A stretch of 64,000 nt of DNA from a bacterium (GCA_022072515.1 JAJVHT010000069.1:30910-94909); one strand, 5' to 3'; positions 4,876 to 37,116 are shown, counted from the first letter of the stretch. The notes: generated by a model from the letters alone, not told the origin. Numbers and translations are program-made.

Positions 4876-5130
4876 CTACTTGCCGCCCAATTTGGCTTGG
4901 ACGAGGCTCGCCAGGCTGGCGATGGTGTTAAAATTTTTGGTGTTCATTTCGTGTGCTTCGATTTGAACTCCATATTTCTTCTCGAGGAACGCCGCCATTT
5001 TAATGGTAGCCATGGAATCAAGAATTCCGCCGCTGACGAGCGGGGTCTCGTCGGCTAATCCCGCCGGATCCTCGCCGGGGAGAAATTCTTCCAGAATATA
5101 ATCCTTCACGATTTTTTTAATTTCGTTCAT
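4876..5130 (-). CDS. Stand-alone acyl/peptidyl carrier protein, DltC-like
   Basis: 84-aa ORF with ATG start. Carrier-protein size, with attachment-site-type motif GGILDSMATIKM (compare DltC LLDSFGTV). It sits between two MBOAT-SGNH genes. Confidence 0.8.
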   Translation of the reverse strand: MNEIKKIVKDYILEEFLPGEDPAGLADETPLVSGGILDSMATIKMAAFLEKKYGVQIEAHEMNTKNFNTIASLASLVQAKLGGK

Positions 5131-5155
5131 CTGTAAATCTCCTTATATGGTTTTT

Positions 5156-5267
5156 CGTAACTATTCAGCTATTTCACCGCCCGGGCGCTTATTTTTGATA
5201 TTGGTTATATCGCGCCATTTATTTTTGTACACAGATTTGAGCGCCCGGGCGGTACTGAATAGTTACG
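5156..5267 (+). repeat. Palindromic ~110-nt intergenic repeat (MITE/REP-like), copy 1
   Basis: Sequence runs cgtaactattcagctatttcaccgcccgggcgc ... gcgcccgggcggtactgaatagttacg. The termini are inverted repeats around a CCCGGG core. Near-identical copies occur at 55663-55772 (same orientation) and 56731-56843 (inverted). It lies between the MBOAT-A stop and the carrier-protein start. Confidence 0.85.
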
Positions 5268-5292
5268 TTTTTTCATCTGTTTAAGAAAAAAA

Positions 5293-10599: not shown

Positions 10600-10640
10600 C
10601 TTTCATCTCCATCGCGAATAAGATATGGTAAATGCGCCAA

Positions 10641-15188: not shown

Positions 15189-15218
15189 ACCGGTTCTCTT
15201 AAAAATAAAGTCAAAGTT

Positions 15219-16259
15219 TTATGCCGCTTTATATCCGCGCACGAAACTATTCACGCCGTAAACTGACATCGCACTGGAGACGATATTGCTGAAACCCGCT
15301 TCCGCCAACCAGCGTTTGCTGTCGCTCATCGTATGGTTCTTGCCGTGTTTTGTCGTGCAGAGCAAATCCAGATCGATGAAGACGGCCCAACGCCCGCCTA
15401 GGCGGTTTTCCTGCAAGTGTTGTGACTGGATGACGACGGAGCCGCCGGGATTGAGTGCTTCATGCAAACGCGCCAGGAGCCGCCGGCGTGTCGCCTCATC
15501 GAAAATGTGCAGCAGATTCGAGGCGAGAATCAAATCGTACGATCCGGGAATATCGTCGCGCACCGCATCGAACGGCAAATAGTGCACTTCATTTTGCAAT
15601 GGATACTTTGCCTGAATTTCTTTGGCCACGTCCAGAACGCCGGCATTATCCATCAGATAAAGCTGCAAATCCGGATTGCGCATTCCCAACATAAACGCAT
15701 ACGTGCCCGAGCCGCAGCCCAAATCCAACAAAGTTTTGCAGCCGCGCGTGTCCAGATAGTGCGCCAGCTCTTTGCCGCGCAATGACGCGTAGTTGTGCAT
15801 GGCCAGCGTGTAAGTGCGCGTGAGATTGGGGTCGACGCCGAGATAATCGGCCTGGTCGGCCGTGGGTTCGGAGCTGAGCACGGCTTCATCAAGGCGGAAG
15901 ATGGCCGTGCAAAATTCTTTCTGCAGGCGAATCCAATTGCCGAGGTAATTATCGCCGGCGGACGGCAACAACACAGACCGGCATGCTGGTGCGGCCCGAA
16001 AGCTGGTGCCGTCTTCGGTTTCAAGCAGCTTCAGCACGACGCCGGCATTTAACAAACGCACCAAAGATTCCGGCCGCGCTTTGATTTCTGCCGCCAGCGC
16101 TTGCACCGTCTTGCTGTCATCGCCGAGGCGCTCGAAAATTTCCAGTTTGAGCAGCGCGAACAGAACGCTGGACTGATAAAAGCCTTCGGCGATGGTCAGC
16201 ACCTGAATTTGATCTTTGATGATCGAGGTGCGGTTCGAGGTTGTCGGTGGTTGCGCCAT
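15219..16259 (-). CDS. SAM-dependent O-methyltransferase (class I, with N-terminal dimerisation-type domain)
   Basis: Motif I is LLDLGCGSGTYAFML, with a helical N-terminal domain typical of small-molecule OMTs. The track ORF extends to 16334, but that overlaps the upstream gene by 71 nt. The internal ATG at 16259 (MAQPPTTS) leaves a 4-nt gap after the upstream stop. Confidence 0.75.
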   Translation of the reverse strand: MAQPPTTSNRTSIIKDQIQVLTIAEGFYQSSVLFALLKLEIFERLGDDSKTVQALAAEIKARPESLVRLLNAGVVLKLLETEDGTSFRAAPACRSVLLPSAGDNYLGNWIRLQKEFCTAIFRLDEAVLSSEPTADQADYLGVDPNLTRTYTLAMHNYASLRGKELAHYLDTRGCKTLLDLGCGSGTYAFMLGMRNPDLQLYLMDNAGVLDVAKEIQAKYPLQNEVHYLPFDAVRDDIPGSYDLILASNLLHIFDEATRRRLLARLHEALNPGGSVVIQSQHLQENRLGGRWAVFIDLDLLCTTKHGKNHTMSDSKRWLAEAGFSNIVSSAMSVYGVNSFVRGYKAA

Positions 16260-16263
16260 AATT

Positions 16264-16857
16264 TTAGAATTGATAGCCGAATTTTTCAATATCAGTTTGA
16301 AACCAGCGCCCGACGATTGCAAGCGAGGCGTCATTGTAGTACTGCCGATAGTCGCCGCGGTCGGATTTCTTCAAATGCGGCAACTCGGCCTCCCGGTTGA
16401 GCAGCAAACAAATTTTCGCGAAATCGGCCTGCAGATTCTCAAATCTGCCGATGAAATTAACCGCCTGCTTGCCGTTCTCGTCGATCAGCCAATGCCATTG
16501 CGGCATGAACATCTTGGGTTTGTTATAATACTCCGGCGCATTATCGCCGTAGGCCAATTTCACCCACTCATTAAAATCGACGGCCTTCGTTCCCAATGCG
16601 GTTTGGTTCGTCATGACGCGGTAATGATAATGCGACACCACGCGATCCCAGGGATTTCTGACGATTGCGAAGCTGAACAATTTTTTCCACGTGTCTTTGC
16701 CCAGCTCGGATATTTTCTCCAAAGCCGTCCGGTGTCCGAAATTCAATCCCAAGGCCTGCTCGATGCTGCTGCCGCCGGTCTTGTTGATATGAATAAAGAA
16801 AAATCCCCGTTGCACCGCCAGCGGGCGGCGCCGGCGGCCTTCTCCGATCTCGTTCAT
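16264..16857 (-). CDS. Sulfotransferase (family-2-like)
   Basis: 197 aa. FFFIHINKTGGSSIEQAL is a PAPS 5-prime-phosphosulfate-binding loop; AIVRNPWDRVVSHY is the 3-prime-phosphate-binding motif. ATGA overlap with the upstream gene. Confidence 0.75.
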   Translation of the reverse strand: MNEIGEGRRRRPLAVQRGFFFIHINKTGGSSIEQALGLNFGHRTALEKISELGKDTWKKLFSFAIVRNPWDRVVSHYHYRVMTNQTALGTKAVDFNEWVKLAYGDNAPEYYNKPKMFMPQWHWLIDENGKQAVNFIGRFENLQADFAKICLLLNREAELPHLKKSDRGDYRQYYNDASLAIVGRWFQTDIEKFGYQF

Positions 16858-17936
16858 GAATCCAATCTATCCTCAAAATCAAATTTTTTTGCCATCGTCG
16901 CAATGGATTCAGCTTCAGCGCTCGATAAAACTTTTTTCCAGCCCGCAATGCGTTCGCCAACCGGCAGGCCGCGCCGATGTTTCGCGCTTGACGAGCTGTC
17001 GTCATCAAACACCCGAAAATCGTGTTCGCCAACCGGCGCCACGTTTAGGCGTTGCAGCATTTCCAAAACAACCTGCTCGCGCCGACGGCACAAGTCTTCA
17101 TAACTCACAAAAACGATGCGGGCGCGGTTATCGGCAAAGCTGTGCTGCACAAACTTCTCGGTCAATGCCCAGTAAGCTGTGAGGCGCGTTACCATATCAC
17201 CTTCGTCGTAATGCTTGATCTCCTCACGCCATTGGCCGAAAAAATCGGCGCGCCCATCGTCCGGGTGGAGAAGTTGATTTGCCAAACTCAGATGCTTGAA
17301 CATGCTTCCCCACGGCGTCGTTTTGGCGCTCGCCATCACAGCGCGCGGATCGCGATAAATGTGAATGACCGGCAAGGCGAACGTATTGTGTACAGCCCGC
17401 AGGCAAAGCTGAGCCCGAACACATTTTAAAATGACGCGCGTGCGAAAGCTTTCATCCAGACGGTTGCGATAAATTCGAACCCATCTGCCCGAGAGGGCGG
17501 AATGCAGCGCCAGATCGAAGACGCGGTGCAACGGATGCCCTGCGAGCGTGGGCGCGCCGCAGAAAGGCATATACTGCCATAAAAATCCTTTTTTTCTTTC
17601 AGCCAGATAATTGTCTTGCGCGTAAAGGGCCTTTACTTCCGGCACCTCGGAAAACAGCGGCTCAAAAACCAGTTTGGCGGTGAGCATTTTCGTCAGCGAC
17701 TCTTGCAGCCAGGTCGTGCCGCTGCGCCAAAAACCGCACATGAACAGGCTGTCACGCGGATTGATTTGCGCGGCAACTTGCCGATCAATGTCATAAGAAG
17801 CGGCGGCGGCGCGCAATTTTTTTTCACGGTTTTTTGACGCCGCCGTTGTCGCCGCTTGGGGCTTACCTGAATTCATAAAGTGCTCTGTCTCATTGCAACA
17901 TATCATCCGGAGCGCCGGGAACTTTGTGCTTACCAA
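16854..17936 (-). CDS. Sulfotransferase (P-loop RSGTTW type)
   Basis: CGFWRSGTTWLQESL is the 5-prime PSB loop; HIYRDPRAVMAS is the 3-prime PB motif. The track start at 17936 is TTG. In-frame ATGs at 17906 and 17876 are alternative starts. Confidence 0.75.
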   Translation of the reverse strand: MVSTKFPALRMICCNETEHFMNSGKPQAATTAASKNREKKLRAAAASYDIDRQVAAQINPRDSLFMCGFWRSGTTWLQESLTKMLTAKLVFEPLFSEVPEVKALYAQDNYLAERKKGFLWQYMPFCGAPTLAGHPLHRVFDLALHSALSGRWVRIYRNRLDESFRTRVILKCVRAQLCLRAVHNTFALPVIHIYRDPRAVMASAKTTPWGSMFKHLSLANQLLHPDDGRADFFGQWREEIKHYDEGDMVTRLTAYWALTEKFVQHSFADNRARIVFVSYEDLCRRREQVVLEMLQRLNVAPVGEHDFRVFDDDSSSSAKHRRGLPVGERIAGWKKVLSSAEAESIATMAKKFDFEDRLDS

Positions 17937-17941
17937 AAACT

Positions 17942-18547
17942 TCAGGAAAATTCTTCAATATCACGTATTGAATTATGCGGCGTGTGTTTTTTCTTATCAC
18001 GCACACTTGCTTTATTGGTGTGCGGAAACGGCACGGCCGGAATTTCCTTGTGCAAAAAAGCGCATAATTTCTCCCAGCCATCGCCGTCGGCAAAATTCAT
18101 CACCAGCAGATCATTGGGGCGCTCGCGAAAATATTCCAGCACGTCGCGATTGTGCCGCTCGTATCTTGCGGCATAAATCGTTTCGTTACCGGCCGGATTA
18201 CCGACGCCGTAAATCCATTTTCGCATCGGCGTCTTTGCGGCGCCGAAGTATTTCACCATGCTCGCCACCCAACTTTCCGTCGAGCGCACGGTCAAAATAA
18301 ATTTGCTGCCGGGATATTTTTGATCGAGTTCTCGATAGATAATCGGCCACGGATTGTCACTGAACGCATCGTATTGCTCCACCAATGCAAAAGCGAAGGC
18401 ATAAACTTCCTGCGCAATATACGGATTCTTGTAAACGCTCAGCTCGGCTTTGTTGACGTGATAGCCTAAAATCCGCAGCGCTTTGCTCAGCGACGAGGTG
18501 CCGGTACGATGAAAACCGATGCAGAAAATTTTAAACTGATTCATCAT
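17942..18547 (-). CDS. Sulfotransferase (small, family-4-like)
   Basis: 201 aa. FCIGFHRTGTSSLSKAL is the PSB-type loop. The ATG start directly abuts the TAA stop of the upstream GT2. Confidence 0.65.
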   Translation of the reverse strand: MMNQFKIFCIGFHRTGTSSLSKALRILGYHVNKAELSVYKNPYIAQEVYAFAFALVEQYDAFSDNPWPIIYRELDQKYPGSKFILTVRSTESWVASMVKYFGAAKTPMRKWIYGVGNPAGNETIYAARYERHNRDVLEYFRERPNDLLVMNFADGDGWEKLCAFLHKEIPAVPFPHTNKASVRDKKKHTPHNSIRDIEEFS

Positions 18548-19624
18548 TTATTCATCTTCTTCGCTCGGCAGGGAAAATGGCGCAACCCTGCCGGGCGCTT
18601 TTTTTAAATGGGTCCGGCCATCAGAAGAACGGACGATGGAACGAGCCGAAAAATCAATTTTTTCTTTCTGGGTCAGCCGTTGCCAACCCTGCATCATCGG
18701 CCGGACAATCTTCTGTCCACCCAGCAAGCAGTTGATCATCCGGCGCAGATGGCCCGGCCGCGTCAACGGCGATTGCAATATGCCGGGAAACAAACGAATG
18801 GTTTCAAAACACGCCCGCAGCGCCTGAAAAGTTTTCGCGCTGTGATATTGATCTCTCGCCAATCGCCTTTGCTCCCGGGCCGCAAAAATTCGCTCTGCCA
18901 CTTGCCGCTCTTTGCCGTCCAGTTCCTGAACAGCGCGCTGGCGCATCTTCGTCAAAAGCTTGCGCACTTTCTGCTTGGGAGGGCGCCACTGTCCGCTATG
19001 AACACGCCAGAGGCAAACTGTGCCCGGAACCAATATCACCAAACCCCGCCGCGACAACCGCAGCCACAATTCATGATCCTCGCCAAAACTATAAGTCGTG
19101 TTCCAGCCATGCAGCGATTTGATGGCTGCCGTTAGAAACAAACACCGCGAACAAACCGGCGACCAGCCCAACAAAATATCGGGCCAGAGATTGCGCAAAT
19201 AATGCCGCCGCACGAATTTGCTCGACATTTGCGCGCCATGCTCGTCAAATCTCACAATATTTCCGATTGAAGCAATGGCCGACGGATAACGCGCGAAAGC
19301 ATCAACATGGGTTTGCAATCCCGCCGCGGGCAGCAAATCATCGTCATCTAAAAAGAGAATGAACTTGCCTTGTGCAACGTCAAGGCCGGTATTGCGCGCG
19401 GCCGACCGTTCGGCATGTTGCTCGAGCCGAAGAATCTTGACCCGTTTGTCACCAAGCTGTTGCACGTAGGCAAACGTGTCGTCTTCCGACGCATCATCTA
19501 CGACAACCAGCTCCCACTGCACAAACGTTTGCGCCAAAATGCTGTTAATCGCCTCCGCCAGTAAAACACGGCGATTGCGCGTGGGGATAACAATCGAAAT
19601 CACTGGCGCGTCATTCATGCCCAT
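18548..19624 (-). CDS. Glycosyltransferase family 2
   Basis: 358 aa. ISIVIPTRNRRVLLAEAINSILAQTFVQWELVVVDDASEDDT and FLDDDD (DxD). Confidence 0.85.
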   Translation of the reverse strand: MGMNDAPVISIVIPTRNRRVLLAEAINSILAQTFVQWELVVVDDASEDDTFAYVQQLGDKRVKILRLEQHAERSAARNTGLDVAQGKFILFLDDDDLLPAAGLQTHVDAFARYPSAIASIGNIVRFDEHGAQMSSKFVRRHYLRNLWPDILLGWSPVCSRCLFLTAAIKSLHGWNTTYSFGEDHELWLRLSRRGLVILVPGTVCLWRVHSGQWRPPKQKVRKLLTKMRQRAVQELDGKERQVAERIFAAREQRRLARDQYHSAKTFQALRACFETIRLFPGILQSPLTRPGHLRRMINCLLGGQKIVRPMMQGWQRLTQKEKIDFSARSIVRSSDGRTHLKKAPGRVAPFSLPSEEDE

Positions 19625-22219: not shown

Positions 22220-24976
22220 TCACGTCACGATTCCAGCTAACGCCGCTTTTTCCGCCAGCATCGCCTCGATTTGTTCATCCGAAAGCTGGTTGATTTGCAT
22301 CAGCGTGCGCGCAATTTCAACGATATCGATTTCTTCTGCCTGGCCGGCGGCGATGAGGCGCGTAGCAAATTGGGCCACTGTCGGCGCTTCCCAAAACTCA
22401 TGCACCGGCAAGATCACCGGAAAAATATCGCGCAATTGCGCCATAATTTTCGTTGCCATTAACGAGTGGCCGCCCAATTCCAAAAAATTGTCCTGCACGC
22501 CGATCGGCGCGAACGCAAAAACGTCGCTCCAAATTTGCGCCACCACTTCTTCCACCGGATGGCGCGGCGCGACAAACGCCGTCGACAATTCCGGCCGCGA
22601 AAAATCTGGCGCCGGCAGCGCCCGGCGATCAATTTTGCCGTTGGGTGAAAGCGGCAGGGCTTCCAGCAAAACAAAAGCCGTTGGCACCATGTATTCGGGC
22701 AAACATTTGTGCAGATACTCGCGCCACGCCGGCACGAGTTCGTGCGCGGCTTGACCATATTTCGAATCCGGGACAATATAGGCCACAAGACGCTTGCCGC
22801 TTCCGACTTGATCGGGCTTTTCATCTTTCGCAACGACCACCGCTTCTTTGACGGCGGGATGCTTGGCCAACGCCGAGATAATTTCACCAAGCTCGATGCG
22901 ATAGCCGCGAATCTTCACTTGAAAATCCATGCGACCGAGCAGCTCGAGATTGCCGTCCCGCACCGCCGGGTGGCGTGCGAGGTCGCCGGTTTTGTACATG
23001 CGGTCGCCGGCAATGCCGCTGAACGGATTGGGAATAAATTTCTCCGCTGTCAACTCCGGGCGATTCCAATAACCGCGGCCCACGCCGATGCCGCCGAGAT
23101 GCAATTCACACGGCACGCCGACTGGAACCGGCTGCAGATATTTATCCAACACGTAAGCGAGCTGATTCGCCATCGGCACGCCGTAAGGAATACTTTTCCA
23201 TGCCGACGAGGCGTCCACGATATCGTAAATAGTGGAATCCATCGACACTTCGGTCGCACCGCCCATGCTGACCACGTGCACGCCGGGAATCAAACTTTTG
23301 AGGCGATCCGGCAAACTCACCGGAATCCAATCCCCGCCGAGCAAAGCTAGGCGCAACAAGCGTGGCGTGAGGCCGGGATGATCGCTGCAATGATTCACCA
23401 GCATCTCGAGCAGCGCCGGCACCGAATGCCAAACCGTGATGTCGTGATGCACCATTAACTCCGCCCAACGGCCCGGCTCCAAAATGGCGGGGGCTGCAAC
23501 GATGACGATCGTGCCGCCGGTCAGCAGCGTGCCGAAAATATCGTACGCCGACATGTCGAAACTCAGCGAAGCCAAGCCGAGCAGGCGATCATTGGCGCCA
23601 ATCGCGTAGCGCCGGTTGAAATCACAAAAATTGCTGACGCGGCCACGATGGTTGAGCACGGCGCCCTTGGGACGGCCGGTCGAGCCCGAGGTGTAAATCA
23701 CATAGGCGAGATGCGCGGGCGTGACGCTGCTGTGCGGATTCACGGCGCTTTCCGGCGCGATCGTTTCTGCAATTTGATCCAGGCAGATTAATTTAAAATT
23801 CGCCGTGGCAAAATTTAAATTTGCACGCAACGAGGTTTCCGTCAACAAAACCTGCACCTGCGTATCTTCCAGCATAAACGCCAATCGTGATGCCGGATAT
23901 GAAGGATCCAACGGCACGTAAGCGCCGCCGGCTTTGAGTATGCCATAGAGGCCGATCACCATTTCGAGCGAACGGTTCATGTAAACCCCGACAAGCGTAT
24001 CCGGCCCCACGCCCAACTTTTGTAAATAATGCGCCAGTTTATTGGCGCGGCGATTCAACTCACCGTAAGTGAGTTGCGCGTCTGCGAAAACGACGGCAAT
24101 CTTATCCGGCAAACTCTCCGCTTGCGCCTCAAAGAGATGATGCAGACATGCATCAGAGGGAAACGGCGCCTCCGTCGCATTCCACTTTCTCACAATCTGC
24201 TGCCATTCTTCATCCGGCAAAATCTGCAGCAAGGCGATTCGCGTGTCCGGATTGGCAACCGCGCCGTGCAGCAAGGCCTGGTAGTGCCCGGCCATGCGTG
24301 TGATCGTCGCAGCGTCAAACAAATCGGCGTTGTAAGTGATGACGCCTTCGCAGCCTTGCGGGCCGTCAACTATTGCGAAGTCCACCTCGAACTTGGCGAG
24401 TTCATCATTCGCTGGCGTCCCATCGGCGCCAGTGTAATCAGTTACGCCATTTTTAAAAGCAAAGGCCGATTGAAAAAGACGGCTCGGGTCACGCTGCGGG
24501 TAAAGCTCGTGGGCCAGTTGCGCCAACGGCAGCGCTGCGTGCGCTCGTGCTGCGTGTAAGATTCCGCGCACGCGGTTGAGCAACTCGCGAAAGGTCGGAT
24601 TGCCGCTTAGATCCACGCGCAACGGCAGTGTATTCGCGATCGTCGCGGCCGTAACCAGGTCATTTTGGCCCGAGTAACGCTGCAATAAAATTTGATAGGC
24701 GGCAAACAAGCCTTCAAAAAGGGTGGCGGCTTCCTCGCCACACAACCGGAGTAGTCCTTCCCTCGCGATGGGAGAAAGCGCGAACCGCTGGCTTTCACGC
24801 CGGTAAGTTGGCACGGCGGGACGGGCGCGGTCCGTGGGCAGTTCCAACGCCGGCGGGTTTTCACCCAACTGCTTTTTCCAGTAAGCGCGCGAGGTATGCA
24901 ACGCTTCACCTTGCAACCAATTTTCCGGCACCGCCGCCTGCTTTTCAGCTGGGGGTCTCATGTTGCGCGTGCTCAT
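22220..24976 (-). CDS. Non-ribosomal peptide synthetase module: remnant C domain - A - T (PCP)
   Basis: 918 aa. The N-terminal ~255 aa match only the C-terminal half of a condensation domain (YWKKQLGENPPALELPTDRARP onward; no HHxxxDG). A domain: LTYGELNRRANKLA, AYVIYTSGSTGRPKGA, SLSFDMSAYDIFG, SMGGATE, ELHLGGIGVGRGYWNRPELTAEKF, YKTGDLAR, GRMDFQVKIRGYRIELGEI, NGKIDRRAL. PCP: FLELGGHSLMATKIM. Confidence 0.9.
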   Translation of the reverse strand: MSTRNMRPPAEKQAAVPENWLQGEALHTSRAYWKKQLGENPPALELPTDRARPAVPTYRRESQRFALSPIAREGLLRLCGEEAATLFEGLFAAYQILLQRYSGQNDLVTAATIANTLPLRVDLSGNPTFRELLNRVRGILHAARAHAALPLAQLAHELYPQRDPSRLFQSAFAFKNGVTDYTGADGTPANDELAKFEVDFAIVDGPQGCEGVITYNADLFDAATITRMAGHYQALLHGAVANPDTRIALLQILPDEEWQQIVRKWNATEAPFPSDACLHHLFEAQAESLPDKIAVVFADAQLTYGELNRRANKLAHYLQKLGVGPDTLVGVYMNRSLEMVIGLYGILKAGGAYVPLDPSYPASRLAFMLEDTQVQVLLTETSLRANLNFATANFKLICLDQIAETIAPESAVNPHSSVTPAHLAYVIYTSGSTGRPKGAVLNHRGRVSNFCDFNRRYAIGANDRLLGLASLSFDMSAYDIFGTLLTGGTIVIVAAPAILEPGRWAELMVHHDITVWHSVPALLEMLVNHCSDHPGLTPRLLRLALLGGDWIPVSLPDRLKSLIPGVHVVSMGGATEVSMDSTIYDIVDASSAWKSIPYGVPMANQLAYVLDKYLQPVPVGVPCELHLGGIGVGRGYWNRPELTAEKFIPNPFSGIAGDRMYKTGDLARHPAVRDGNLELLGRMDFQVKIRGYRIELGEIISALAKHPAVKEAVVVAKDEKPDQVGSGKRLVAYIVPDSKYGQAAHELVPAWREYLHKCLPEYMVPTAFVLLEALPLSPNGKIDRRALPAPDFSRPELSTAFVAPRHPVEEVVAQIWSDVFAFAPIGVQDNFLELGGHSLMATKIMAQLRDIFPVILPVHEFWEAPTVAQFATRLIAAGQAEEIDIVEIARTLMQINQLSDEQIEAMLAEKAALAGIVT

Positions 24977-25668
24977 ATCAATTCATAACCAAAAAACTTA
25001 AGAACGTCTTCATGCTCTTGGAGAACCGCGTTGATGCGATCGATATCCGTTCGCCGCAAACGGCCGATTTTTTCATGATTAAAATTTTGAATCGTTTCGT
25101 CGCTTGCATGCGCGGCAAAGGATTGCGTGATGTCAATATCCTGCAAGGCCGGCATAAAGTTCAGAATCTGTTTTTTAATTTGCGGGGTTTGTTCGGTAAA
25201 GCGTTCATATGTAAAATGCGTCAGCTTTTTTAAGCCTGTAATATTTTTGATTTGATAGGCCGCGTGCGCAATCCATTTGCCTGCAGAAATTTGAACATCG
25301 TGATCGAGCCGCCGGCGGTGGCTTTCACAAAAGGCATACGGATTTCTGATCATCGCCACAAAAGCCGCCGGCTGAAAAACTTTTTCGATCTCAAAAGCGC
25401 GCGCGATGTTCGGCGGACTTTTTTCCAGCAAAATCGGCTTATGCAAATCCCAATGCTTTTCCCAGGTCGCTTTAATCTGAAGCCACGGCAGACGCTTCCC
25501 GGGATTCCACGGCTCGGTGCGCATGAATTCTCTCACGCCCTCCAGCGCCTGGCCCTCATACGGCAGCGACGACACGGCCGGCGAAGTGCCAAGCAATTTC
25601 CACAGGACCGTCGATCCGGAAAAAGGCGGGCAGAGAACAAATAAATATTCATGCGCCATAACTGCCAT
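24973..25668 (-). CDS. Sulfotransferase
   Basis: LCPPFSGSTVLWKLL is a PSB-type loop; AMIRNPYAFCES is the 3-prime PB motif. ATGA overlap with the NRPS start. The track start 25734 is TTG and would run through the 25714-25753 hairpin. ATGs at 25668 and 25659 are more plausible. Confidence 0.65.
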   Translation of the reverse strand: MAVMAHEYLFVLCPPFSGSTVLWKLLGTSPAVSSLPYEGQALEGVREFMRTEPWNPGKRLPWLQIKATWEKHWDLHKPILLEKSPPNIARAFEIEKVFQPAAFVAMIRNPYAFCESHRRRLDHDVQISAGKWIAHAAYQIKNITGLKKLTHFTYERFTEQTPQIKKQILNFMPALQDIDITQSFAAHASDETIQNFNHEKIGRLRRTDIDRINAVLQEHEDVLKFFGYELI

Positions 25669-25700
25669 CCAAAGCGGGTAATGTCGAAATACTATAAATC

Positions 25701-25753
25701 GTAAAAAGTCGTGCGTAAAACGTAACACGCGCAAAGACGTGTTACGTTTTACG
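25701..25753 (-). terminator. Perfect 15-bp inverted repeat hairpin (possible intrinsic terminator or attenuator after the protease gene)
   Basis: cgtaaaacgtaacac (25714-25728), a 10-nt loop, then gtgttacgttttacg (25739-25753). On the minus strand the stem is followed, after 6 nt, by TTTTT. It starts 15 nt downstream of the protease stop. Confidence 0.45.
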
Positions 25754-25768: not shown

Positions 25769-27610
25769 TTATTTCATCAGCACGAGACGGCGAACCTGCC
25801 GCACGGCGCCGACTTCCAGGACGGTGAAGTAAACCCCGCTCGGCAAATGGCCCGCTTCAAAACGCGCCAAATGATGGCCGGCGGCGCGGCGCTGATTCAC
25901 CAGCGTCGCCACTTCGGCGCCGACGAGATTGTACACTTTCAACGTCACAAAAGCTTCTTCCGGCAGACTAAAAGCAATCGTCGTGCTCGGATTAAACGGG
26001 TTCGGATAATTGGGATACAAGGCAATCTCTTGGGGAACGCCTGCTGTCGCCGATTCGGCGGCAACCGGCTTTTGCGCCCGGCTCGTCGCTGAGCAAACTT
26101 CAAATTCGGCAAGGCGCAGATGGCCGTTATTGAAAACCGTCGCCTGCAGCATGATATACCGTTCCGTGCGCGTCGTGGGCAAATTGATTGTCTCGGTGCC
26201 GCCGGCGCCGGTCGTCGTGCTGAACACGGTTACAAACGAATTGCCATTGGTCGAATTAGAGACACGGATCGAATAACTTTTGGCGTAGCGTGTCGGGTCG
26301 CTGCTGCTCCATTTCAAAGTCACCTGATTGTAGCTCTTCCCGGTTCCCAAATCAATGCGGATTGATTGGGGCGCCGAATTTTTGTTTCGCCAATATGTGC
26401 TCGTATTGCCGTCAACGGCCTTGGGGGCGTTGGTGCTGCTGTTAAAATTGCTGGTCGCCGTCGCCGGCCGGCCTTGCGCGATGTTGGTGCAACCGCCGCC
26501 CCCACCGCCGTCGCAAGTCGGCCCATTCAGCGCATTCCAAAATGCGGTGTTAAAGGTGCTTGTGCCGCTGTTGTTGCCGCCCCCTGTGGAGCAGCCGCCA
26601 TGCGTGTGAACACCGACGGCATTGCCGGTGGCCTCGTCAATGACCGGGCTGCCGGAGTTGCCGCCCTCAGTGTCAACCTGATAGCGCATAGTGGTTCCGG
26701 AGGAGCCCGCGTTGGGGCCGGCGTGAGTCTGCTGGGTTTGGTTGCGCGCCGGGTCGTTGAAATCAACACCGAAGCCGGTAATGCGGATGGTCGGCGGACC
26801 AAGATTCTGCACGACATTAAAAGACGCGCCCTGCGCAGCGATCGGCTGCAGACCGGTTACCGAGTTATTGAACACGCAAAAGCGGCCCCAATCATTGCCG
26901 ATACCGCCGTTGACAAATTGCCAACTGCCGGGATCAATCGAATATTGATCCTGCGGACCGGGATTGTTGAGCGTGCCGTCGGAATTGGAAGGCGGCACAT
27001 TAAATTGCAAAACCAGATTGCTGCCGCCCGAACAATGCCCGGCGGTGACATGCAAGCCGTTGGCAATAATCCATCCGGTGCAGCCAATATTCAAAATACG
27101 GCCCGAAGCCGGATGATTGGAAGGAACGCGATCATCCGCTGATCCGCACTGGGACGCCGGCAGGGCGACGCCGCCAACCCATTCACCGACTTCAAGCGCT
27201 TTGAGTTGAAAGAAAATTCCCTCGTCATCCGGGCCGACGTAAAGGTGCACATCGACGGCATCGCCATTGAAATACGCGCTGGAATTTTGCCATTGCGCCA
27301 ACTTGGCGGCATTGAGGTCTTGCCGGGCGCCGTCTTTGCGCGAGATGAGCGCCAGATAGCTGTTGGCGCCGAGATGGACTTGGCCAAAATACACTCGCAG
27401 CCATGGCGCTCCGGCAACTTCGACGCGGCGGCTTTCTGCTAAAAAGGTTCTGGCGCCGTCACCTCTTTCGCCTTGATGTTCTGCGGACTTCCAGGAATAG
27501 GCCTCTTGGTGAAACGGAATCTCGGCGGTTTGCGCCGCGACCAGCGCGGGCCAAACCATTCCGACCACCATGCCAAGCAGCCCGAGACGTTGTAGCAGTG
27601 ATCTTTTCAT
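25769..27610 (-). CDS. Secreted trypsin-like (Glu-specific/V8-like) serine protease with discoidin (F5/8 type C) domain and T9SS C-terminal sorting domain
   Basis: ATG 27610 is preceded by AAGGAGG and gives signal peptide MKRSLLQRLGLLGMVVGMVWPALVAAQ. Catalytic motifs are HVTAGHC (His) and EGGNSGSPV (Ser). A discoidin-like block runs NIAQGRPATATS...STYWRN...LAEFEV. The C-terminus (YPNYPNPFNPSTTIAFSLPEEAFVTLKVYNLVGAEV...GVYF) is typical of a T9SS CTD. Confidence 0.85.
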   Translation of the reverse strand: MKRSLLQRLGLLGMVVGMVWPALVAAQTAEIPFHQEAYSWKSAEHQGERGDGARTFLAESRRVEVAGAPWLRVYFGQVHLGANSYLALISRKDGARQDLNAAKLAQWQNSSAYFNGDAVDVHLYVGPDDEGIFFQLKALEVGEWVGGVALPASQCGSADDRVPSNHPASGRILNIGCTGWIIANGLHVTAGHCSGGSNLVLQFNVPPSNSDGTLNNPGPQDQYSIDPGSWQFVNGGIGNDWGRFCVFNNSVTGLQPIAAQGASFNVVQNLGPPTIRITGFGVDFNDPARNQTQQTHAGPNAGSSGTTMRYQVDTEGGNSGSPVIDEATGNAVGVHTHGGCSTGGGNNSGTSTFNTAFWNALNGPTCDGGGGGGCTNIAQGRPATATSNFNSSTNAPKAVDGNTSTYWRNKNSAPQSIRIDLGTGKSYNQVTLKWSSSDPTRYAKSYSIRVSNSTNGNSFVTVFSTTTGAGGTETINLPTTRTERYIMLQATVFNNGHLRLAEFEVCSATSRAQKPVAAESATAGVPQEIALYPNYPNPFNPSTTIAFSLPEEAFVTLKVYNLVGAEVATLVNQRRAAGHHLARFEAGHLPSGVYFTVLEVGAVRQVRRLVLMK

Positions 27611-27623
27611 ACCACATTCCTCC

Positions 27624-28400
27624 TTAAATTTGAGTGCCACATCCGTTAGTTAAAACATCCTGCCGCAACTGGCCGCACACCGCCTGCAGCAGCGACAAGC
27701 GCGAAGCCTTAAGAAAAAAATGGTCGCCTTCAAACATGTTCAGCGAGAAGGCATTGCCGGTCTGCTGGCGCCACGCTTCCAAATGCGTCCGCGGCGAACT
27801 GTGATCCTGCAATCCGCCAAAACAAGAAATCGGGAAATCGAATGGCGCTTCGTCGTCGTAGACATAGGTATCGCTCATCGCAAAATCCGCCCGTAAAGCC
27901 GGCAGCAACAGCGCCAGCATCTCCGCATTTTCCAAAATCTCGCGCGGAATGCCCTTGTAACGAACGCTGACTTCCTGCACGAAATCATCATCCGGCAAAT
28001 GCTGCAGCGGCGGATGGGGATCGGGAATCTGCGGCGCGCGCGAGCCGGAGACGAACAGGCGCAGCGGCTGTGCGTCATTTTGCCGGCGCAATTGGCGGCT
28101 CAATTCAAAGGCGGTGATCGCACCGAGGCTATGGCCGAAAAAAGCAAACGGCTTGTCGAGGGCCGTCGCGAGGATTGGCGCCAAGGCTTCGCACAGCGCG
28201 TCCAGCTTCGTGAACGGTGTTTCTTGCAAGCGCGCTTCCCGCCCCGGCAACTGCACCGCAACAATTTCCACTTCCGGCGGCACACTCAACGCCCACGTCC
28301 GATATTCAAATGCGCCGCCACCCGCGTACGGAAAGCAGAACAACCGCACCCGCGCTTGCGGATGCGATTTGGGAATACTGAGCCAGCCGTTGTTCGTCAT
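27624..28400 (-). CDS. Type II thioesterase
   Basis: LFCFPYAGGGAFEYRTW and FFGHSLGA (GxSxG), with a C-terminal GDHFFL. The track start 28439 is TTG; ATG 28400 gives a typical ~259 aa. Confidence 0.85.
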   Translation of the reverse strand: MTNNGWLSIPKSHPQARVRLFCFPYAGGGAFEYRTWALSVPPEVEIVAVQLPGREARLQETPFTKLDALCEALAPILATALDKPFAFFGHSLGAITAFELSRQLRRQNDAQPLRLFVSGSRAPQIPDPHPPLQHLPDDDFVQEVSVRYKGIPREILENAEMLALLLPALRADFAMSDTYVYDDEAPFDFPISCFGGLQDHSSPRTHLEAWRQQTGNAFSLNMFEGDHFFLKASRLSLLQAVCGQLRQDVLTNGCGTQI

Positions 28401-28469
28401 CTTCGTTCGCAAGATTGAATTCGAAATTACACTCTTCAATTCACCCTTTTTACCGCTTGGCCAAAGCGT

Positions 28470-29147: not shown

Positions 29148-31466
29148 TTACTTCTGCAACGTCACTTTCCGCACGATCGTCTGCGGCCCGACCTGCAAGC
29201 GATAGAGGTAAACGCCCGAGCTGACTTCCCGCCCCGAATCATCCCGACCGTTCCACCGCGCCAATTTGTATCCCGGCGTTTGCGTTTCGTGAATCAATAA
29301 TCGGACACGCTGGCCCATGACATTGTAAATGCCCAAATGCACCGGCGTTTCTTCCGGCAACGCGTATTCAATCACCGTTTGCGCGTTGAACGGATTTGGA
29401 TAACTCGGTGCGAGTGTGACTCGCTCCGGTTTTTGGGCAGTAATACTCAGCGGCTGCGCCAACGCTGCGGCCGGCGCCGGCAGCTCGCGCGCCGCAGCGG
29501 CCGCATTCATTTGCAAAACCAATTGCGGCTTATCGGCGCCTTCCTTTGAGCTGTATTGCACCGTGGTTGCAGAGTTATTCTGCATGCCGAAACTAAACGT
29601 GCCGTTGCCGGTGAGGGCCGGCGTGACATCCCACTCAACCCACTGCCCGACCGTTACGCTGCCCACCGTACCCAGGGCGCTCCCCGTAAAATTTGGCGCG
29701 TTAGTGGCATTGATGCCGTTCTCGAGCCACGGCGTGGAAGTACTGCGATAATTATTTGAGGTTGTGTAAACCGAACCGCCGCTGTTGCTCGCCACGGTCA
29801 CGCGCAAACGCAGCTTCGCGCTCTGCACCGTGGCGGTTAAGCCGCTCACCACAAACTTCAGATAACTGCGCAGAACCGTCGAAGACTTTTGTAAACGCAG
29901 GGTCGTCGCCGAGCCATTATTCTGCGTGCGATTCGCCGAGTTTATGTATGCATCGGCCGTCGGATTGAAAATTAAATTTTGCGGCGGTGGCGTGACGGTA
30001 AAATCATCCGCGCTCATGGCCGTGCCTCCCGGCGCGGTAACGCTGATTTTGCCGGTGGTGGCGCCGGCGGGAACATCGGCGCGCAGGCTCGAATTTGACA
30101 TGACCGTCACAGTGCTCGCGGCGACACCATTGAAAGCAACTTGCGTCGCGCCAGTAAAATTCGCGCCGGTGATGGTTACTTGGGTGCCAACCACGCCATT
30201 GGTAGGATTAAAAGAAACAATGCCCGGCGGCAGCGGCGGGGTCAGGACGAAATCATCCGCGCTGGTTGCCGTACCGCTGGGATTGGTGACCGTAATTTTC
30301 CCGGAGGTTGCGCCCGCCGGCACCTCCACTTGAATTTCCGTATCGGAGGCGATGGTGAAACTGCTCGCCGCCATGCCATTAAAAGCAACCTGGGTTGCCG
30401 TATTGAACGAGCTGCCAATAATTGTCACGGCCGTACCAATAGCTCCCGACAATGGACTGAAAGACGAGAGGACCGGCGCCGGCGGCGGCGCCACGCTCGA
30501 TCTGACAAAAAAAGCATCCGGCTGCGCGCCATTGATCGCTTTGAAATAAAAGCGCGCCATATCCGGTTGGCCGTTATAATTGAACTCGCCAAACAGGGCG
30601 CCGTAGGTGGCGTTCTGCGTCGAGGTGTAAATGCTCGCCCACCAGGCGCCGCTCAGTTTTTGCGAGCGGATGCTTTTGCCGCCCAGCCCTGAAACGAAAA
30701 CAAAGCTTCTGCCCTCATCCGCCGGCGTGTTCGCATCGTCTTTGGCGAGGACCAACGTGTTCGAGGTGCTGGCCACGGTTTGATTTTGACAACTGCTCAG
30801 CAGATGCGTCCGGCTGTAAGAATGTTCATGCGCAGTCGCAATGATGGCCCCGCCTTTTCGCGCTTCTTCGTAAACGGGCCAGCCCGTGTCGTCGCCCTTG
30901 TCGCCGACTTGCATGAGCTTCATGTTTTTGTGCCAACTGCTGATGCTCCAAATGGAATTATCCACCGCCAGCTTGTCACGAATGTAAATGTCGTGGCCGC
31001 TGCCGGTGACGCCGGGCGCGGTCAAAACGAAAAAAATGCCGCTATAATTAAATGAAGATTTGACGCCCAGATCTCCATCCCACGTGATGCCCAGCCGGTT
31101 CATGCGCGCGATCAAGAACGATTGATAACCACTGGCGCCATAAAAATTGCTCTTATCGTGGTTTCCAATCGACGCGAAGTATGGAAAATTCGCGCCTAAC
31201 ACGCTGGTGATCAAATTATCCCACGCCGCCGCGTTGTCGCCATAGTCGAAATCGCCGGAATGCACGACGGTTTGCGCACCTTCATTTTTGATGAGATTCA
31301 AGACCGCGATCGCATTCGCTCCCGTGCCTTGATCGCCGATAAAAGCGACCTTGAAATTGGCCGGCGTTTGCGATGTTTGCGCCAGCAGCGTCGAGACACT
31401 CACGCTGGCGAAAGCAGCCATACCGAGAAGCATAAGCCTTCTCTGCAAAAAACGGATCCCTTCCAT
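29148..31466 (-). CDS. Secreted calcineurin-like metallophosphoesterase with two IPT/TIG-like repeats, a beta-rich module and T9SS C-terminal sorting domain
   Basis: Signal peptide MEGIRFLQRRLMLLGMAAFASVSVSTLLAQ. Metallophosphoesterase motifs: VAFIGDQGTG, HSGDFDY, GNHD. Two ~80-aa repeats (FSPLSGAIGTAVTIIGSSF...GKITVTNPSGTATS and FNPTNGVVGTQVTITGANF...GKISVTAPGGTAMS). The C-terminus (YPNPFNAQTVIEYALPEETPVHLGIYNVMGQRV...GVYLYRL) is T9SS-CTD-like. Confidence 0.8.
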   Translation of the reverse strand: MEGIRFLQRRLMLLGMAAFASVSVSTLLAQTSQTPANFKVAFIGDQGTGANAIAVLNLIKNEGAQTVVHSGDFDYGDNAAAWDNLITSVLGANFPYFASIGNHDKSNFYGASGYQSFLIARMNRLGITWDGDLGVKSSFNYSGIFFVLTAPGVTGSGHDIYIRDKLAVDNSIWSISSWHKNMKLMQVGDKGDDTGWPVYEEARKGGAIIATAHEHSYSRTHLLSSCQNQTVASTSNTLVLAKDDANTPADEGRSFVFVSGLGGKSIRSQKLSGAWWASIYTSTQNATYGALFGEFNYNGQPDMARFYFKAINGAQPDAFFVRSSVAPPPAPVLSSFSPLSGAIGTAVTIIGSSFNTATQVAFNGMAASSFTIASDTEIQVEVPAGATSGKITVTNPSGTATSADDFVLTPPLPPGIVSFNPTNGVVGTQVTITGANFTGATQVAFNGVAASTVTVMSNSSLRADVPAGATTGKISVTAPGGTAMSADDFTVTPPPQNLIFNPTADAYINSANRTQNNGSATTLRLQKSSTVLRSYLKFVVSGLTATVQSAKLRLRVTVASNSGGSVYTTSNNYRSTSTPWLENGINATNAPNFTGSALGTVGSVTVGQWVEWDVTPALTGNGTFSFGMQNNSATTVQYSSKEGADKPQLVLQMNAAAAARELPAPAAALAQPLSITAQKPERVTLAPSYPNPFNAQTVIEYALPEETPVHLGIYNVMGQRVRLLIHETQTPGYKLARWNGRDDSGREVSSGVYLYRLQVGPQTIVRKVTLQK

Positions 31467-31578: not shown

Positions 31579-33057
31579 TTATTTCCGAATCATGGTGATC
31601 CAATCCTGAACCACCGAAAACGCCAAAGCCATGTTTTTGATGCTCACCGTTTCACGCCGCTTGAGCGCAGCGTGAATTTTCCCCAAAAGAAAAGCCGCTA
31701 CATACCACGCCAACCGCCGGCGGTCAGCGGCCCACGGCACTTGCCGCTGGTAACTCGTCAAATAAAGCTCGATGCTTTCATCCACCGGCGCGGCGGGAAT
31801 GGCATCACTTACTTTTAAAAACGCCAACGAAGCCACGAATTCCGCCACATCATAGAGCGGATCGCCGCAAGCAATCGAATCAAAATCAATGAGCGCCAGT
31901 GCGCCGTCCCGGCACAAAAGCTGCGCCAGCTTAAAGCTGCCGTGAATCGTCGTTTGCGGCATTTCGGCCTCCAACCAGCCAACCGGCGCTTCCAACGTTT
32001 TAACAAAATGCTCCAACTCTTCTCGCCGTTGCGGCAAAAACGGCGCAATGTCGCTCGCATCATCGCAAGCATTGAGAAACACCGCTTGCAGAGACGGCCC
32101 GCGCCGCAGTTGCACGCCGTCAATCACGATCTGATGCAGCGCCGCGAGCATGCCGGCGATTTGTTGCGGAAACGCCGTCCGCGGCAAATTCACCCAACCG
32201 GTTCGCTGCATCATGACATTGAAATCTTCACCTTCCCATGCCTGCTGCCAAACGCTGTGGGCCGCGTCGAGATACGCGATCGGCGCCGGTACATTCAGCC
32301 GCCCGTCATGACAAGCCGGACTCGCACAAATTTTTTGCAAGGCCCGATACACGTGCCAGCCTTGCCCGTCGTCATAAGTTTTGCTATAAAAAATGGGGGC
32401 CAAGCCGGTCGTTGTGGACGCGCTCAGCTCCAGCGTGAAACGCAACACACAGCGTTTACCGGGCATGTATTTAATTTTGTCGATAACCACGTGCTGGCAC
32501 GTGACGCCGTCCGGCAAACCCAAACCGGCACGATTGGCTTCGATTTGTTGCATGATCCACGCCGGCTCCAAAAGTTGGCCGAGATAAGGCAGCTTGCGAT
32601 CATACGGAAACGCGTACAGCACCATATCCATTTCCGGCCACACGTTGACGGGTTTCCAAAAACCGCAGCCCGGCCAGGTGTCCGGCGTTTCACGCCAATC
32701 CTTGCCGCGCTTGCAGGGCATTTGGGCCTGAAACCACATCGCATAATTTTTCTGCCGATGCTCGCGATCACGGCAACGCACGGTGTAGGTGATCTCACAA
32801 CTCTTTCCCGGCTTGTGGTAAACTTTGCCGACGGCGACAGTGTCGATCAACAGCGCATGGCCGGGATACTCCCGCTGAAAAAACTCCTGCAAGGCCGGTT
32901 TCATCCACACCGCATCCAGCGCGCGCGCCAACTGCGGCAGATGTTCATCCTGTCCGTCCTGCTTTTTGCGCTTGCGCGGCAAGCGCGCGGCGCCGGTGTT
33001 TTTAGGGTCGTCTGCAAGCATGCTTTGTTGTATTTCGTTGGGTTGGCATCTCTGCAA
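31579..33057 (-). CDS. Kinase-fold (APH/CotS-like) protein K1, long form with duplicated N-lobe; catalytic Asp replaced
   Basis: 492 aa. The C-lobe reads TIHGSFKLAQLL...LIDFDSIACGDPLYDVAEFVASL. Two N-lobe-like units: VGKVYHKPGKSCEITY and IDKIKYMPGKRCVLRF...IFYSKTY. The track start 33057 is TTG; an alternative ATG is at 33021. Confidence 0.7.
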   Translation of the reverse strand: MQRCQPNEIQQSMLADDPKNTGAARLPRKRKKQDGQDEHLPQLARALDAVWMKPALQEFFQREYPGHALLIDTVAVGKVYHKPGKSCEITYTVRCRDREHRQKNYAMWFQAQMPCKRGKDWRETPDTWPGCGFWKPVNVWPEMDMVLYAFPYDRKLPYLGQLLEPAWIMQQIEANRAGLGLPDGVTCQHVVIDKIKYMPGKRCVLRFTLELSASTTTGLAPIFYSKTYDDGQGWHVYRALQKICASPACHDGRLNVPAPIAYLDAAHSVWQQAWEGEDFNVMMQRTGWVNLPRTAFPQQIAGMLAALHQIVIDGVQLRRGPSLQAVFLNACDDASDIAPFLPQRREELEHFVKTLEAPVGWLEAEMPQTTIHGSFKLAQLLCRDGALALIDFDSIACGDPLYDVAEFVASLAFLKVSDAIPAAPVDESIELYLTSYQRQVPWAADRRRLAWYVAAFLLGKIHAALKRRETVSIKNMALAFSVVQDWITMIRK

Positions 33058-33163
33058 TAAGGAACAGTCGCAAATTCCAACACCAGGGCGATACTGAAAC
33101 GCTGATCCTTATGGCCGCTGTGCATGAGATTCCGTTCGAACAGAGATGCAACCTCATTCCAAC

Positions 33164-34279: not shown

Positions 34280-34301
34280 CGGGGCAACAATTCCTTTGAG
34301 C

Positions 34302-37076: not shown

Positions 37077-37116
37077 GTGTTTGAGAACCGCGTGTTTCCA
37101 ATCTGATTAACGGCAA

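Follow-up and report, generated by a model that had tools for sequence, protein, structure and literature searches.

A lone nonribosomal peptide synthetase module that begins at the lobe junction of its condensation domain: a conserved, predicted aminoacyl loader and candidate partner of Dlt-like acyltransferases in a KSB1-type glycan cluster

What can a nonribosomal peptide synthetase (NRPS) module do when it carries only half of a condensation (C) domain? The question is raised by a 918-aa protein encoded in a stretch of 64,000 nucleotides of bacterial DNA (GCA_022072515.1 JAJVHT010000069.1:30910-94909; hereafter the window), which consists of the C-terminal lobe (C-lobe) of a C domain, an adenylation (A) domain, a peptidyl carrier protein (PCP) domain and a short C-terminal tail. 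An initial annotation of this DNA took the half C domain (half-C) to be decayed and concluded that the module can load an amino acid but cannot condense it. The explanation that we favour, at a probability of roughly 0.55, is a functional stand-alone C-lobe-A-PCP aminoacyl loader that feeds an acyl relay resembling that of the Dlt system.

The protein begins in the middle of a C domain, as had been noted from its sequence. Its match to the Pfam condensation family (PF00668, E 2e-36) covers aa 19-261 and is limited to profile positions 184-455 of 456, and is followed by AMP-binding (282-637), AMP-binding_C (701-781) and PP-binding (811-874) domains. Alignment to intact C-A-T relatives (T being the carrier domain), in which the HHxxxDG motif occupies residues 165-179 and the A3 motif residues 641-658, places the N-terminus about 45 residues past the HHxxxDG position; the window protein and its family open at '..WLQGE..L..YWKKQL', the point at which the two C-domain lobes meet. 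The earliest recognisable motif is YWKKQLG..LELPTDRARP, and HHxxxD[GAE] is absent from the whole 918-aa protein, both as initially described. The region before LPLRVDL had been thought to be shortened, and the alignment attributes this to a deletion, common to the family and of 17 residues in the window protein, that takes out most of the C5 motif (IGxFVNT) and leaves 'ATI---ANTLPLRVDL'. An intact or divergent C domain at the N-terminus was also looked for by Pfam, tblastn and alignment, and only the C-lobe was found. As the N-terminal lobe (N-lobe), HHxxxDG and most of C5 are all missing, the C remnant cannot form peptide bonds. The ATG of the NRPS gene overlaps the stop codon of the sulfotransferase open reading frame (ORF) upstream (ATGA), so that the gene is translationally coupled to the latter, and no room is left for a frameshifted N-terminal C half.

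The rest of the module is complete. The A domain scores 438 bits against the NCBIfam model TIGR01733 (cut-off 317), has all core motifs A1-A10, including D235 (by alignment to 1AMU) and the A10 lysine in 'SPNGKIDR', and reads SMGGATE at A5; the phosphopantetheine site of the PCP reads GGHSL. This agrees with the domain content first reported, and it supports the view that the module has all motifs required for amino-acid adenylation and loading while lacking the parts for condensation. After the PCP, the family has a conserved tail that looks like a docking element, with two helices (885-896 and 900-917) in the AlphaFold2 model.

A module that has lost the catalytic half of its C domain, together with C5, might be a decaying NRPS relic without present function, and its half-C has indeed evolved faster than the A domain, with 40% identity to the ortholog from candidate division KSB1 as against 72-81% for the A domain. 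Selection argues otherwise. When compared with the 84%-identical ortholog in contig L004, the half-C (77% amino acid identity) has a ratio of nonsynonymous to synonymous substitutions (dN/dS) of 0.23; the values are 0.15 for the A core, 0.07 for the A subdomain, 0.27 for the PCP and about 1 for the unaligned 18-residue N-terminal tail. The half-C is thus relaxed yet clearly constrained, and is under purifying selection. A relic is also at odds with an intact frame of 918 codons with all A and PCP core motifs, with dN/dS of 0.07-0.27 in every domain, with an architecture and a synteny that persist across three lineages or more, at identities as low as 63%, and with a translationally coupled gene for which a dedicated MbtH-like protein, a type II thioesterase (TEII) and a serine hydroxymethyltransferase (SHMT) have been kept. 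We regard the relic explanation as hardly tenable.

The AlphaFold2 model of the module has a mean predicted local distance difference test score (pLDDT) of 84.6, with values of 83-95 over aa 20-262 bar one loop. Its nearest structures are crystal structures of C-A didomains. The half-C and the A core can be superposed on these as a single rigid body (LgrA 6mfy, root mean square deviation 2.9 Å over 691 columns; Txo1, 3.8-4.3 Å, 37% identity; about 690 columns in either case), and the half-C is thus predicted to be folded and to sit against the A core just as it does in intact C-A didomains. The architecture also recurs in relatives: 30 of the top 120 homologs start with a methionine at the same lobe junction, followed by the C-lobe and with no N-lobe upstream. 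Among these are single modules of about 920 aa, longer ones of about 1300 aa in which a methyltransferase is inserted in the A domain, and proteins that supply the opening module of a multimodular NRPS (P0024, P0030, P0065 and P0091). The dN/dS of 0.23, the predicted fold and the 30 homologs with the same start contradict the notion of a decayed half-C. Because of the purifying selection, the confidently predicted fold and the recurrence, we interpret the arrangement as design rather than decay: the module is a natural 'CAsub-A-T' unit, conserved and selected. The C-lobe was presumably retained as the structural platform of the A domain, and the starter appears to have arisen by the cutting of an elongation module at the lobe junction.

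The same lobe-hinge boundary is used in the XUC exchange unit (CAsub-A-T-CDsub) of engineered NRPSs (PMC11546977). Like that unit, the window protein starts at the hinge that separates the donor lobe (N) from the acceptor lobe (C), and its acceptor lobe is joined to the A domain. It differs in that the cut is natural, lies at the extreme N-terminus of a stand-alone protein and is accompanied by the C5 deletion, and in that the window locus has neither a downstream donor lobe nor a partner C domain. Truncated, presumably inactive 'C*' domains have been annotated in fungal NRPSs (PMC10212144). A literature search on truncated condensation domains turned up only unrelated cases.

Some relatives of the module carry other domains in front of it. 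In P0018, P0020 and P0021, about 570 aa without an N-lobe precede the C-lobe, and methyltransferase domains are annotated in these proteins; in P0045 and P0076 (L012, 3646-8310), a glycosyltransferase (GT) of family GT1 is fused to a full C-A-T module, which is followed by a PbzB-type SHMT.

A constrained C-lobe might alternatively have a non-canonical catalytic or presenting role, in which it holds a sugar or lipid acceptor, or recruits a sulfotransferase or GT, for modification of the tethered amino acid and its release by the thioesterase. The purifying selection on the C-lobe would be consistent with this, as would the GT (P0045, P0076) or methyltransferase-containing region (P0018, P0020, P0021) found N-terminal to the C-lobe or C domain, the presence of a thioesterase, and the coupling to a sulfotransferase gene whose orthologs hold the same position in L001 and L004. 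Yet no catalytic residues are known in a C-lobe alone, the most conserved C-lobe positions of the family adjoin the A domain, and the thioesterase is, by Pfam, of the editing (type II) kind. An equation of the coupled sulfotransferase with one that is fused to a C-A-T protein in L009 was considered and dropped, as the two share only P-loop similarity, which likewise speaks against such a role. We consider such a role quite improbable.

If the module is a loader, what does it load? Directly downstream of its gene lies an SHMT gene, the product of which has 7QCW as its top PDB match (E 3.5e-134), ahead of ordinary SHMTs (3e-113). The structure 7QCW is that of PbzB, the maker of 2-hydroxymethylserine for the benzobactin NRPS (PMC10098953 supplement), and in PbzB-type enzymes (PbzB, XvbB and the alpha-methylserine synthases FmoH and AsmD) the sequence TAEG--RYH replaces YAEG--RYY of GlyA (PMC10098953). 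The window SHMT reads NVTAEGYPQARFHAG and so has both exchanges (GlyA Y55 to T, Y65 to H), as do all NRPS-linked SHMT homologs, while GlyA controls read KYAEG..RYYGG. As in PbzB, moreover, its IASEN motif is lost, some 11 residues are inserted and its C-terminus is extended; its overall identity is 48% to PbzB as against 42-47% to GlyA. A role as an L-threonine transaldolase (ObiH- or FTase-like) was rejected, with 83 bits for the fluorothreonine transaldolase model against 464 for SHMT. The keanumycin paper has SHMT only within its cited references.

Genes for PbzB-type SHMTs adjoin members of this A-domain clade in the KSB1 ortholog (L001), the close ortholog (L004), an NRPS-polyketide synthase (PKS) line (L009) and the locus of the GT-fused module (L012), and one lies nearby in a multimodular NRPS locus (L011). 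Since five further loci of diverse kinds show such a pairing, an alpha-substituted serine is the likely substrate of the module, and the SHMT probably makes it. The A domain itself belongs to the Cys-type 'xGG(A/P)TE' clade, in which PbzD-A2 (specific for 2-hydroxymethylserine) also falls (PMC10098953); PbzD-A2 carries SCGGPTE in place of SMGGATE. The best PDB matches of the A3-A6 core are BmdB (Cys) and FmoA3 (alpha-methylserine). A specificity code was read by alignment to GrsA-PheA, using a reference fragment 100% identical to residues 185-526 of 1AMU, and the resulting DMYHLGMMD(K) recurs unchanged in the KSB1 orthologs, in family members that contain a methyltransferase and in one intact C-A-T relative; it matches no characterised A domain. 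Specificity prediction, which the initial annotation had left for later, thus yields a code and places the domain in a Cys/alpha-methylserine-type clade. Other relatives have a sister code (DMYNIGLIH/DMYNLGMIH), which we take to resemble Thr codes. The arrangement resembles PbzB/PbzD-A2 of benzobactin, FmoH/FmoA3 and AsmD in having a PbzB-type SHMT beside a Cys-type A domain, and differs from benzobactin in the limited identity of the SHMT, in the code of the A domain, in the lack of Cy (heterocyclisation) or C domains and of benzoxazolinate genes, and in its setting in a KSB1 glycan cluster. The assignment to an alpha-substituted serine comes from gene pairing and not from the code; it is the estimate that we prefer, at about even odds, with plain Ser as the alternative.

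A loaded amino acid must be taken onward, and the window was searched for condensing or releasing partners. Queries for tblastn were four full C domains (including a stand-alone one), a Cy domain, a segment with ketosynthase (KS) and acyltransferase (AT) domains, and a thioesterase domain. The C queries match only from about query residue 212 on, at 24922-24212 of the minus strand, within the module itself, and no N-lobe, Cy or KS/AT match was obtained in any of the six frames of the 64 kb. Pfam scans of the 50 non-overlapping ORFs of the window likewise gave no other C, Cy, KS/AT or reductase domain, and the sole thioesterase match is the stand-alone TEII. The absence of further C, Cy, KS, type I thioesterase (TE-I) and reductase domains, and the presence of a TEII and an MbtH-like protein nearby, had both been recognised before and are borne out here. 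In the MbtH-like protein (192 aa), a poly-proline linker joins the MbtH domain to a further domain of some 110 aa without family match; this long form is kept in the KSB1 ortholog (195 aa), but in L010 the MbtH protein has a mere 71 aa. Because C, KS and TE-I are all missing, the aminoacyl thioester would, to judge from the context, be consumed by an enzyme that is not an NRPS.

Candidates for such an enzyme are encoded at the left end of the window by three paralogous genes, the products of which (X1, X2 and X3) have about 850 aa, about 10 transmembrane segments, a C-terminal SGNH domain and 50-57% mutual identity. In a Foldseek search with the AlphaFold2 model of X2 (pLDDT 84.9), DltB is the top match (8jem/6bug, E 2e-7 to 5e-7, TMt 0.62-0.65), followed by HHAT and PORCN, and the C-terminal domain matches SGNH esterases (TMt 0.70-0.76), so that the initial recognition of three MBOAT-SGNH proteins is upheld by the predicted fold. 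Some JGI annotations label relatives of the family as AlgI/DltB. Among 50 family members, N305 and H348 (which we take to be the MBOAT catalytic pair) are invariant in all 50, as are the SGNH triad S623/D823/H825 and, between the last transmembrane helix and the SGNH domain, the sequence GYYE (535-538); by analogy with Dlt, the latter may hold an acyl-shuttle tyrosine. The family is large, with more than 2400 matches, most of them unannotated.

Small carriers accompany these genes. An 84-aa carrier protein is encoded between X3 and X2, and relatives have two or three paralogous small carriers with the sequence GGILDS[LMI]AT[LI]K beside their MBOAT-SGNH genes (L005, 55-300 and 15443-15691; L007, 9703-9948 and 15401-15649). 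By analogy, a second copy probably lies just past the left edge of the window. A C-lobe module and an SGNH protein also meet in L010, an unrelated polysaccharide locus without a C domain, where a half-C-A(MT)-T gene (MT, methyltransferase) is directly followed by one for a membrane-anchored SGNH protein that is homologous to the SGNH domain of the X family (E 2e-18).

The Dlt system is, to our knowledge, the only MBOAT/SGNH system with a carrier protein as acyl donor. The window resembles that system (DltA-DltC-DltB-DltX-DltD, teichoic acid D-alanylation) in that it has adenylating enzymes for loading carriers, in that genes for small carriers are interleaved with MBOAT genes, in that the X proteins are nearest to DltB by fold, and in the intact Ser/Asp/His triad of their SGNH domain. 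It is unlike Dlt in having MBOAT and SGNH in one polypeptide, in three paralogs and with no DltX microprotein seen, and in its host, which belongs to a diderm-type candidate phylum with the type IX secretion system (T9SS); in the model proposed below, D-Ala would be replaced as the acyl group by (halo)pyrrolyl and by an amino acid of serine type. For Dlt itself, carrier-dependent transfer via an acyl-Tyr intermediate is established; the route in MBOAT/SGNH systems leads from the cytoplasmic thioester to an invariant Tyr, the SGNH Ser and the polymer (PMC12148441).

A second thioester-loading system is encoded in the window. The initial annotation had described it as a stand-alone adenylase/carrier pair, a description that can be refined: among stand-alone enzymes in the PDB, the adenylase is closest to L-Pro-[prolyl-carrier-protein] ligase (6o6e, E 1e-98), and the acyl-CoA-dehydrogenase-like protein has its best matches in the models of the L-prolyl-carrier dehydrogenases PigA (E 4.6e-132, 440 bits, cut-off 500) and RedW (E 1.6e-126, 422 bits, cut-off 650). 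With two halogenases that depend on FADH2, these family-level matches point to a proline-to-(halo)pyrrolyl-carrier cassette made up of adenylase, halogenases, dehydrogenase and the 84-aa carrier. The same set of a Pro-type adenylase, carrier, dehydrogenase and FADH2 halogenases is found in PltF/PltL/PltE/PltA (pyoluteorin) and, for prodiginines, in PigI/PigG/PigA and RedM/RedO/RedW. The window cassette differs from these in that its dehydrogenase scores below the NCBIfam equivalog cut-offs, in that its genes lie among those for MBOAT-SGNH proteins, sulfotransferases and glycosyltransferases, and in that no PKS or C enzyme is present in the window to take the pyrrolyl group onward. In L001, the O-methyltransferase and the Pro-type adenylase, which are separate in the window (15219-16334 and 13617-15188), are fused in a protein of 884 aa (16940-19594).

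We propose the following sequence of events. The PbzB-type SHMT would convert Ser or Gly (or D-Ala) with methylene-tetrahydrofolate to 2-hydroxymethylserine or alpha-methylserine, as the conserved gene pairing suggests. The A domain, aided by the MbtH-like protein, would adenylate this alpha-substituted serine and load it onto its own PCP, and the TEII would clear misloaded carriers. The three MBOAT-SGNH proteins would then pass the acyl group from the carrier thioester via the MBOAT His, the Tyr in the GYYE linker and the SGNH Ser to the acceptor, and the same relay would deliver (halo)pyrrole-2-carboxyl groups from the small carriers of the proline cassette. The acceptor esterified in this way would be an exported, sulfated and possibly phosphorylated glycoconjugate. 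Of the readings of the locus, Dlt-like acylation of such a sulfated glycoconjugate is the one that we would put first, as a plausible proposal. That the NRPS PCP itself feeds the MBOAT-SGNH proteins is suggested by the context and remains tentative, a point that we would sooner doubt than assert; as donors, the small carriers suggest themselves more readily. The scheme in full, in which a KSB1-type Dlt-like relay esterifies a sulfated glycoconjugate with both halogenated pyrrole-2-carboxylate and an SHMT-made alpha-substituted serine, the C-lobe-A-PCP protein being a combined 'DltA+DltC', must be called doubtful.

Several observations weigh against the reading that we favour. The NRPS PCP and the MBOAT-SGNH genes are some 15-20 kb apart, the latter have small carriers of their own, and no result ties the PCP to the MBOAT-SGNH proteins. 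In the X proteins, no MBOAT was recognised by Pfam, by NCBIfam, by phmmer or by a 50-sequence profile against the PDB, nor was the canonical FxYxxF shuttle motif found, the equivalent place being occupied by GYYE. As to the substrate, ordinary L-Ser is a possible alternative: the best overall structural matches of the module are Ser modules, and the H278/D331 pair in its code resembles, as we take it, plain Ser codes. The codes of PbzD-A2 (DMFAVACNW, taken from benzobactin loci in Pseudomonas and Brenneria genomes) and FmoA3 (DAYNVSGCW) differ from DMYHLGMMD at 6 or more of 9 positions, and PbzD-A2 shares only D235, M236 and an aromatic residue at 239 with it, so that assignment of the substrate by a code match to either was dropped. 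C-lobe-A-T proteins also form the first modules of multimodular NRPSs. In L009, moreover, the C-lobe-A-T loader and the PbzB-type SHMT are followed by a sulfotransferase-C-A-T protein (14225-18415) and a PKS. The C-domain search covered the 64-kb window, with the other 62 kb of the source contig lying outside it.

The last three of these points would fit a loading module of a peptide or hybrid line, the partner of which (a trans-acting C, C-A-T or PKS protein) is encoded elsewhere in the genome, with the tail as a docking domain. The loader and SHMT pair of L009 precedes just such partners, P0024, P0030, P0065 and P0091 are initial modules of longer lines, a conserved helical tail follows the PCP, and the window comprises 64 kb of a 126-kb source contig. 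The surrounding sequence speaks against it. No C, Cy or KS is found in the 64 kb on either strand, nor in about 45 kb of syntenic sequence of relatives, which covers both sides of the module and the equivalent of the region beyond the left edge of the window. The initial annotation had named further NRPS or PKS modules just beyond that edge as a finding that would overturn its view; synteny speaks against such modules, since no NRPS or PKS gene occurs past the MBOAT-SGNH genes in two syntenic relatives. The cluster is otherwise of glycan type, and the architecture recurs in polysaccharide loci without a C domain (L010). A partner acting in trans thus seems unlikely to us. The NRPS-PKS line of L009 itself sits inside a locus of exopolysaccharide type (Wzy, deacetylases, carbamoyltransferase).

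The gene neighbourhood as a whole (Table 1) is that of a glycan-type cluster, with glycosyltransferases, sulfotransferases, synthesis of 3'-phosphoadenosine-5'-phosphosulfate, kinases and exporters. Nearly all genes of the window are on the minus strand. In the order of transcription, they open with ATP sulfurylase and adenosine-5'-phosphosulfate (APS) kinase (58.8-56.9 kb). DUF5666 proteins come after these, then a TolC/HlyD/MacB exporter, transferases of the GT28 and GT4 types, six paralogous APH-fold kinases that have a GT1 in their midst, and two ABC exporters. The MbtH-like protein and the TEII come next, interleaved with two T9SS-sorted secreted proteins, and then the NRPS module between its coupled sulfotransferase and the PbzB-type SHMT (25.7-20.8 kb). 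Two GT2, three more sulfotransferases, an O-methyltransferase, the stand-alone adenylase and a Na/H exchanger lead to the final group, which comprises the two halogenases, the dehydrogenase and the three MBOAT-SGNH proteins with the 84-aa carrier (7.8-0 kb).

Table 1. Positions of the features discussed, counted from the first nucleotide of the window
Feature	Position	Strand	Evidence
Three paralogous DltB-like MBOAT-SGNH proteins: X1 (partial), 1-2184; X2, 2206-4767; X3, 5293-7842	1-7842	minus	Fold match
84-aa carrier protein, GGILDSM, between X3 and X2	4876-5130	minus	PF00550, NCBIfam ACP (acyl carrier protein) models, weak DltC match
Prolyl-carrier-protein dehydrogenase, PigA/RedW-like	7984-9138	minus	NCBIfam
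Two FADH2-dependent halogenases, 9256-10599 and 10641-11927	9256-11927	minus	PF04820, CmlS-type NCBIfam matches
Stand-alone adenylation enzyme, proline-type	13617-15188	minus	6o6e match, TIGR01733
PbzB-type serine hydroxymethyltransferase, 446 aa	20846-22186	minus	PDB match, T/H signature, gene adjacency
Stand-alone NRPS module, C-lobe (CAsub)-A-PCP-two-helix tail, 918 aa	22220-24976	minus	ORF, Pfam/NCBIfam, AlphaFold2 model
Conserved two-helix C-terminal tail, aa 881-918, '..LSDEQIEAML..'	22220-22336	minus	Family consensus, model
PCP domain, aa 811-874, GGHSL phosphopantetheine site	22355-22546	minus	PF00550 E 1.9e-14, sequence
Adenylation domain, aa 282-781, A5 = SMGGATE, code DMYHLGMMD(K)	22634-24133	minus	TIGR01733, 1AMU alignment
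C-terminal lobe of condensation domain, aa 19-261	24194-24922	minus	Pfam, alignment, dN/dS, tblastn
Sulfotransferase coupled to NRPS gene (ATGA overlap)	24973-25734	minus	PF13469; orthologs in same position in L001, L004
Type II thioesterase, GHSLG	27624-28439	minus	PF00975 E 2.4e-46, motif
MbtH-like protein, extra C-terminal domain of about 110 aa	28470-29048	minus	PF03621 at aa 2-52; 195-aa KSB1 ortholog

The locus is syntenic in a metagenome contig of candidate division KSB1 (L001, 63% identity) and in L004 (84%). With L001, the shared order comprises APH kinases, GT1, MbtH, TEII, sulfotransferase, the C-lobe-A-T module, SHMT and sulfotransferase, and continues with GT2, sulfotransferase, the O-methyltransferase fused to the adenylase, the Na/H exchanger and halogenases. 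For the downstream part, two relatives show halogenases, dehydrogenase, a T9SS esterase, MBOAT-SGNH, carrier, two MBOAT-SGNH and a second carrier paralog, and beyond these GT4, sulfotransferases and nucleoside diphosphate (NDP)-sugar epimerases. A literature search on KSB1 and halogenases turned up no description of this cluster.

Other genes of the neighbourhood deserve brief mention. At least five sulfotransferases are encoded in the window, together with ATP sulfurylase (57617-58786) and APS kinase (56938-57576); the five include a 197-aa ORF resembling Sulfotransfer_2 (FIHINKTGGSS; 16264-16857, minus strand), which overlaps the start of the O-methyltransferase by 71 nt. The six APH-fold kinases (31579-38463, 42504-43499 and 44603-45733, minus strand), most of which have an N-terminal region of about 200 aa without family match, are conserved as paralogs in the KSB1 relative and may conceivably act on sugar hydroxyls. 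C-terminal T9SS sorting domains occur in the secreted proteins at 25769-27640 and 29148-31466 (minus strand), one of them trypsin-like with an F5/8 type C domain and the other a metallophosphatase that carries TIG and CBM96 domains. L004 shares the first of the two, and neither occurs in the stretch of L001 that was covered. Three small DUF5666 proteins (43496-43960, 44097-44606 and 55776-56423, minus strand) are scattered among the kinase, GT and exporter genes.

The module adds a member to a starter architecture that recurs but has been little described, and its setting varies known kinds of system in a new way: in a KSB1-type glycan cluster, it is found together with a PbzB-type SHMT, a pyrrolyl cassette and DltB-like MBOAT-SGNH fusions that are associated with carriers. 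If our interpretation is correct, nature repeatedly makes starters by a cut at the lobe hinge of the C domain, which would lend independent support to the XUC fusion point, and "C-A-T" calls in genome mining may hide loaders that do not condense. The pairing of PbzB-type SHMTs with Cys-clade A domains, so far known from benzobactins, JBIR-34/35 and ashimides, would reach far beyond Proteobacteria and Firmicutes, and the code DMYHLGMMDK is conserved across dozens of proteins. The locus would also provide a candidate for carrier-fed MBOAT-SGNH acylation outside Dlt, with unusual acyl groups and in an uncultured phylum. Carrier-fed MBOAT chemistry would then extend past the D-alanylation of teichoic acids, and NRPS-type loading would be linked to the decoration of polysaccharides.

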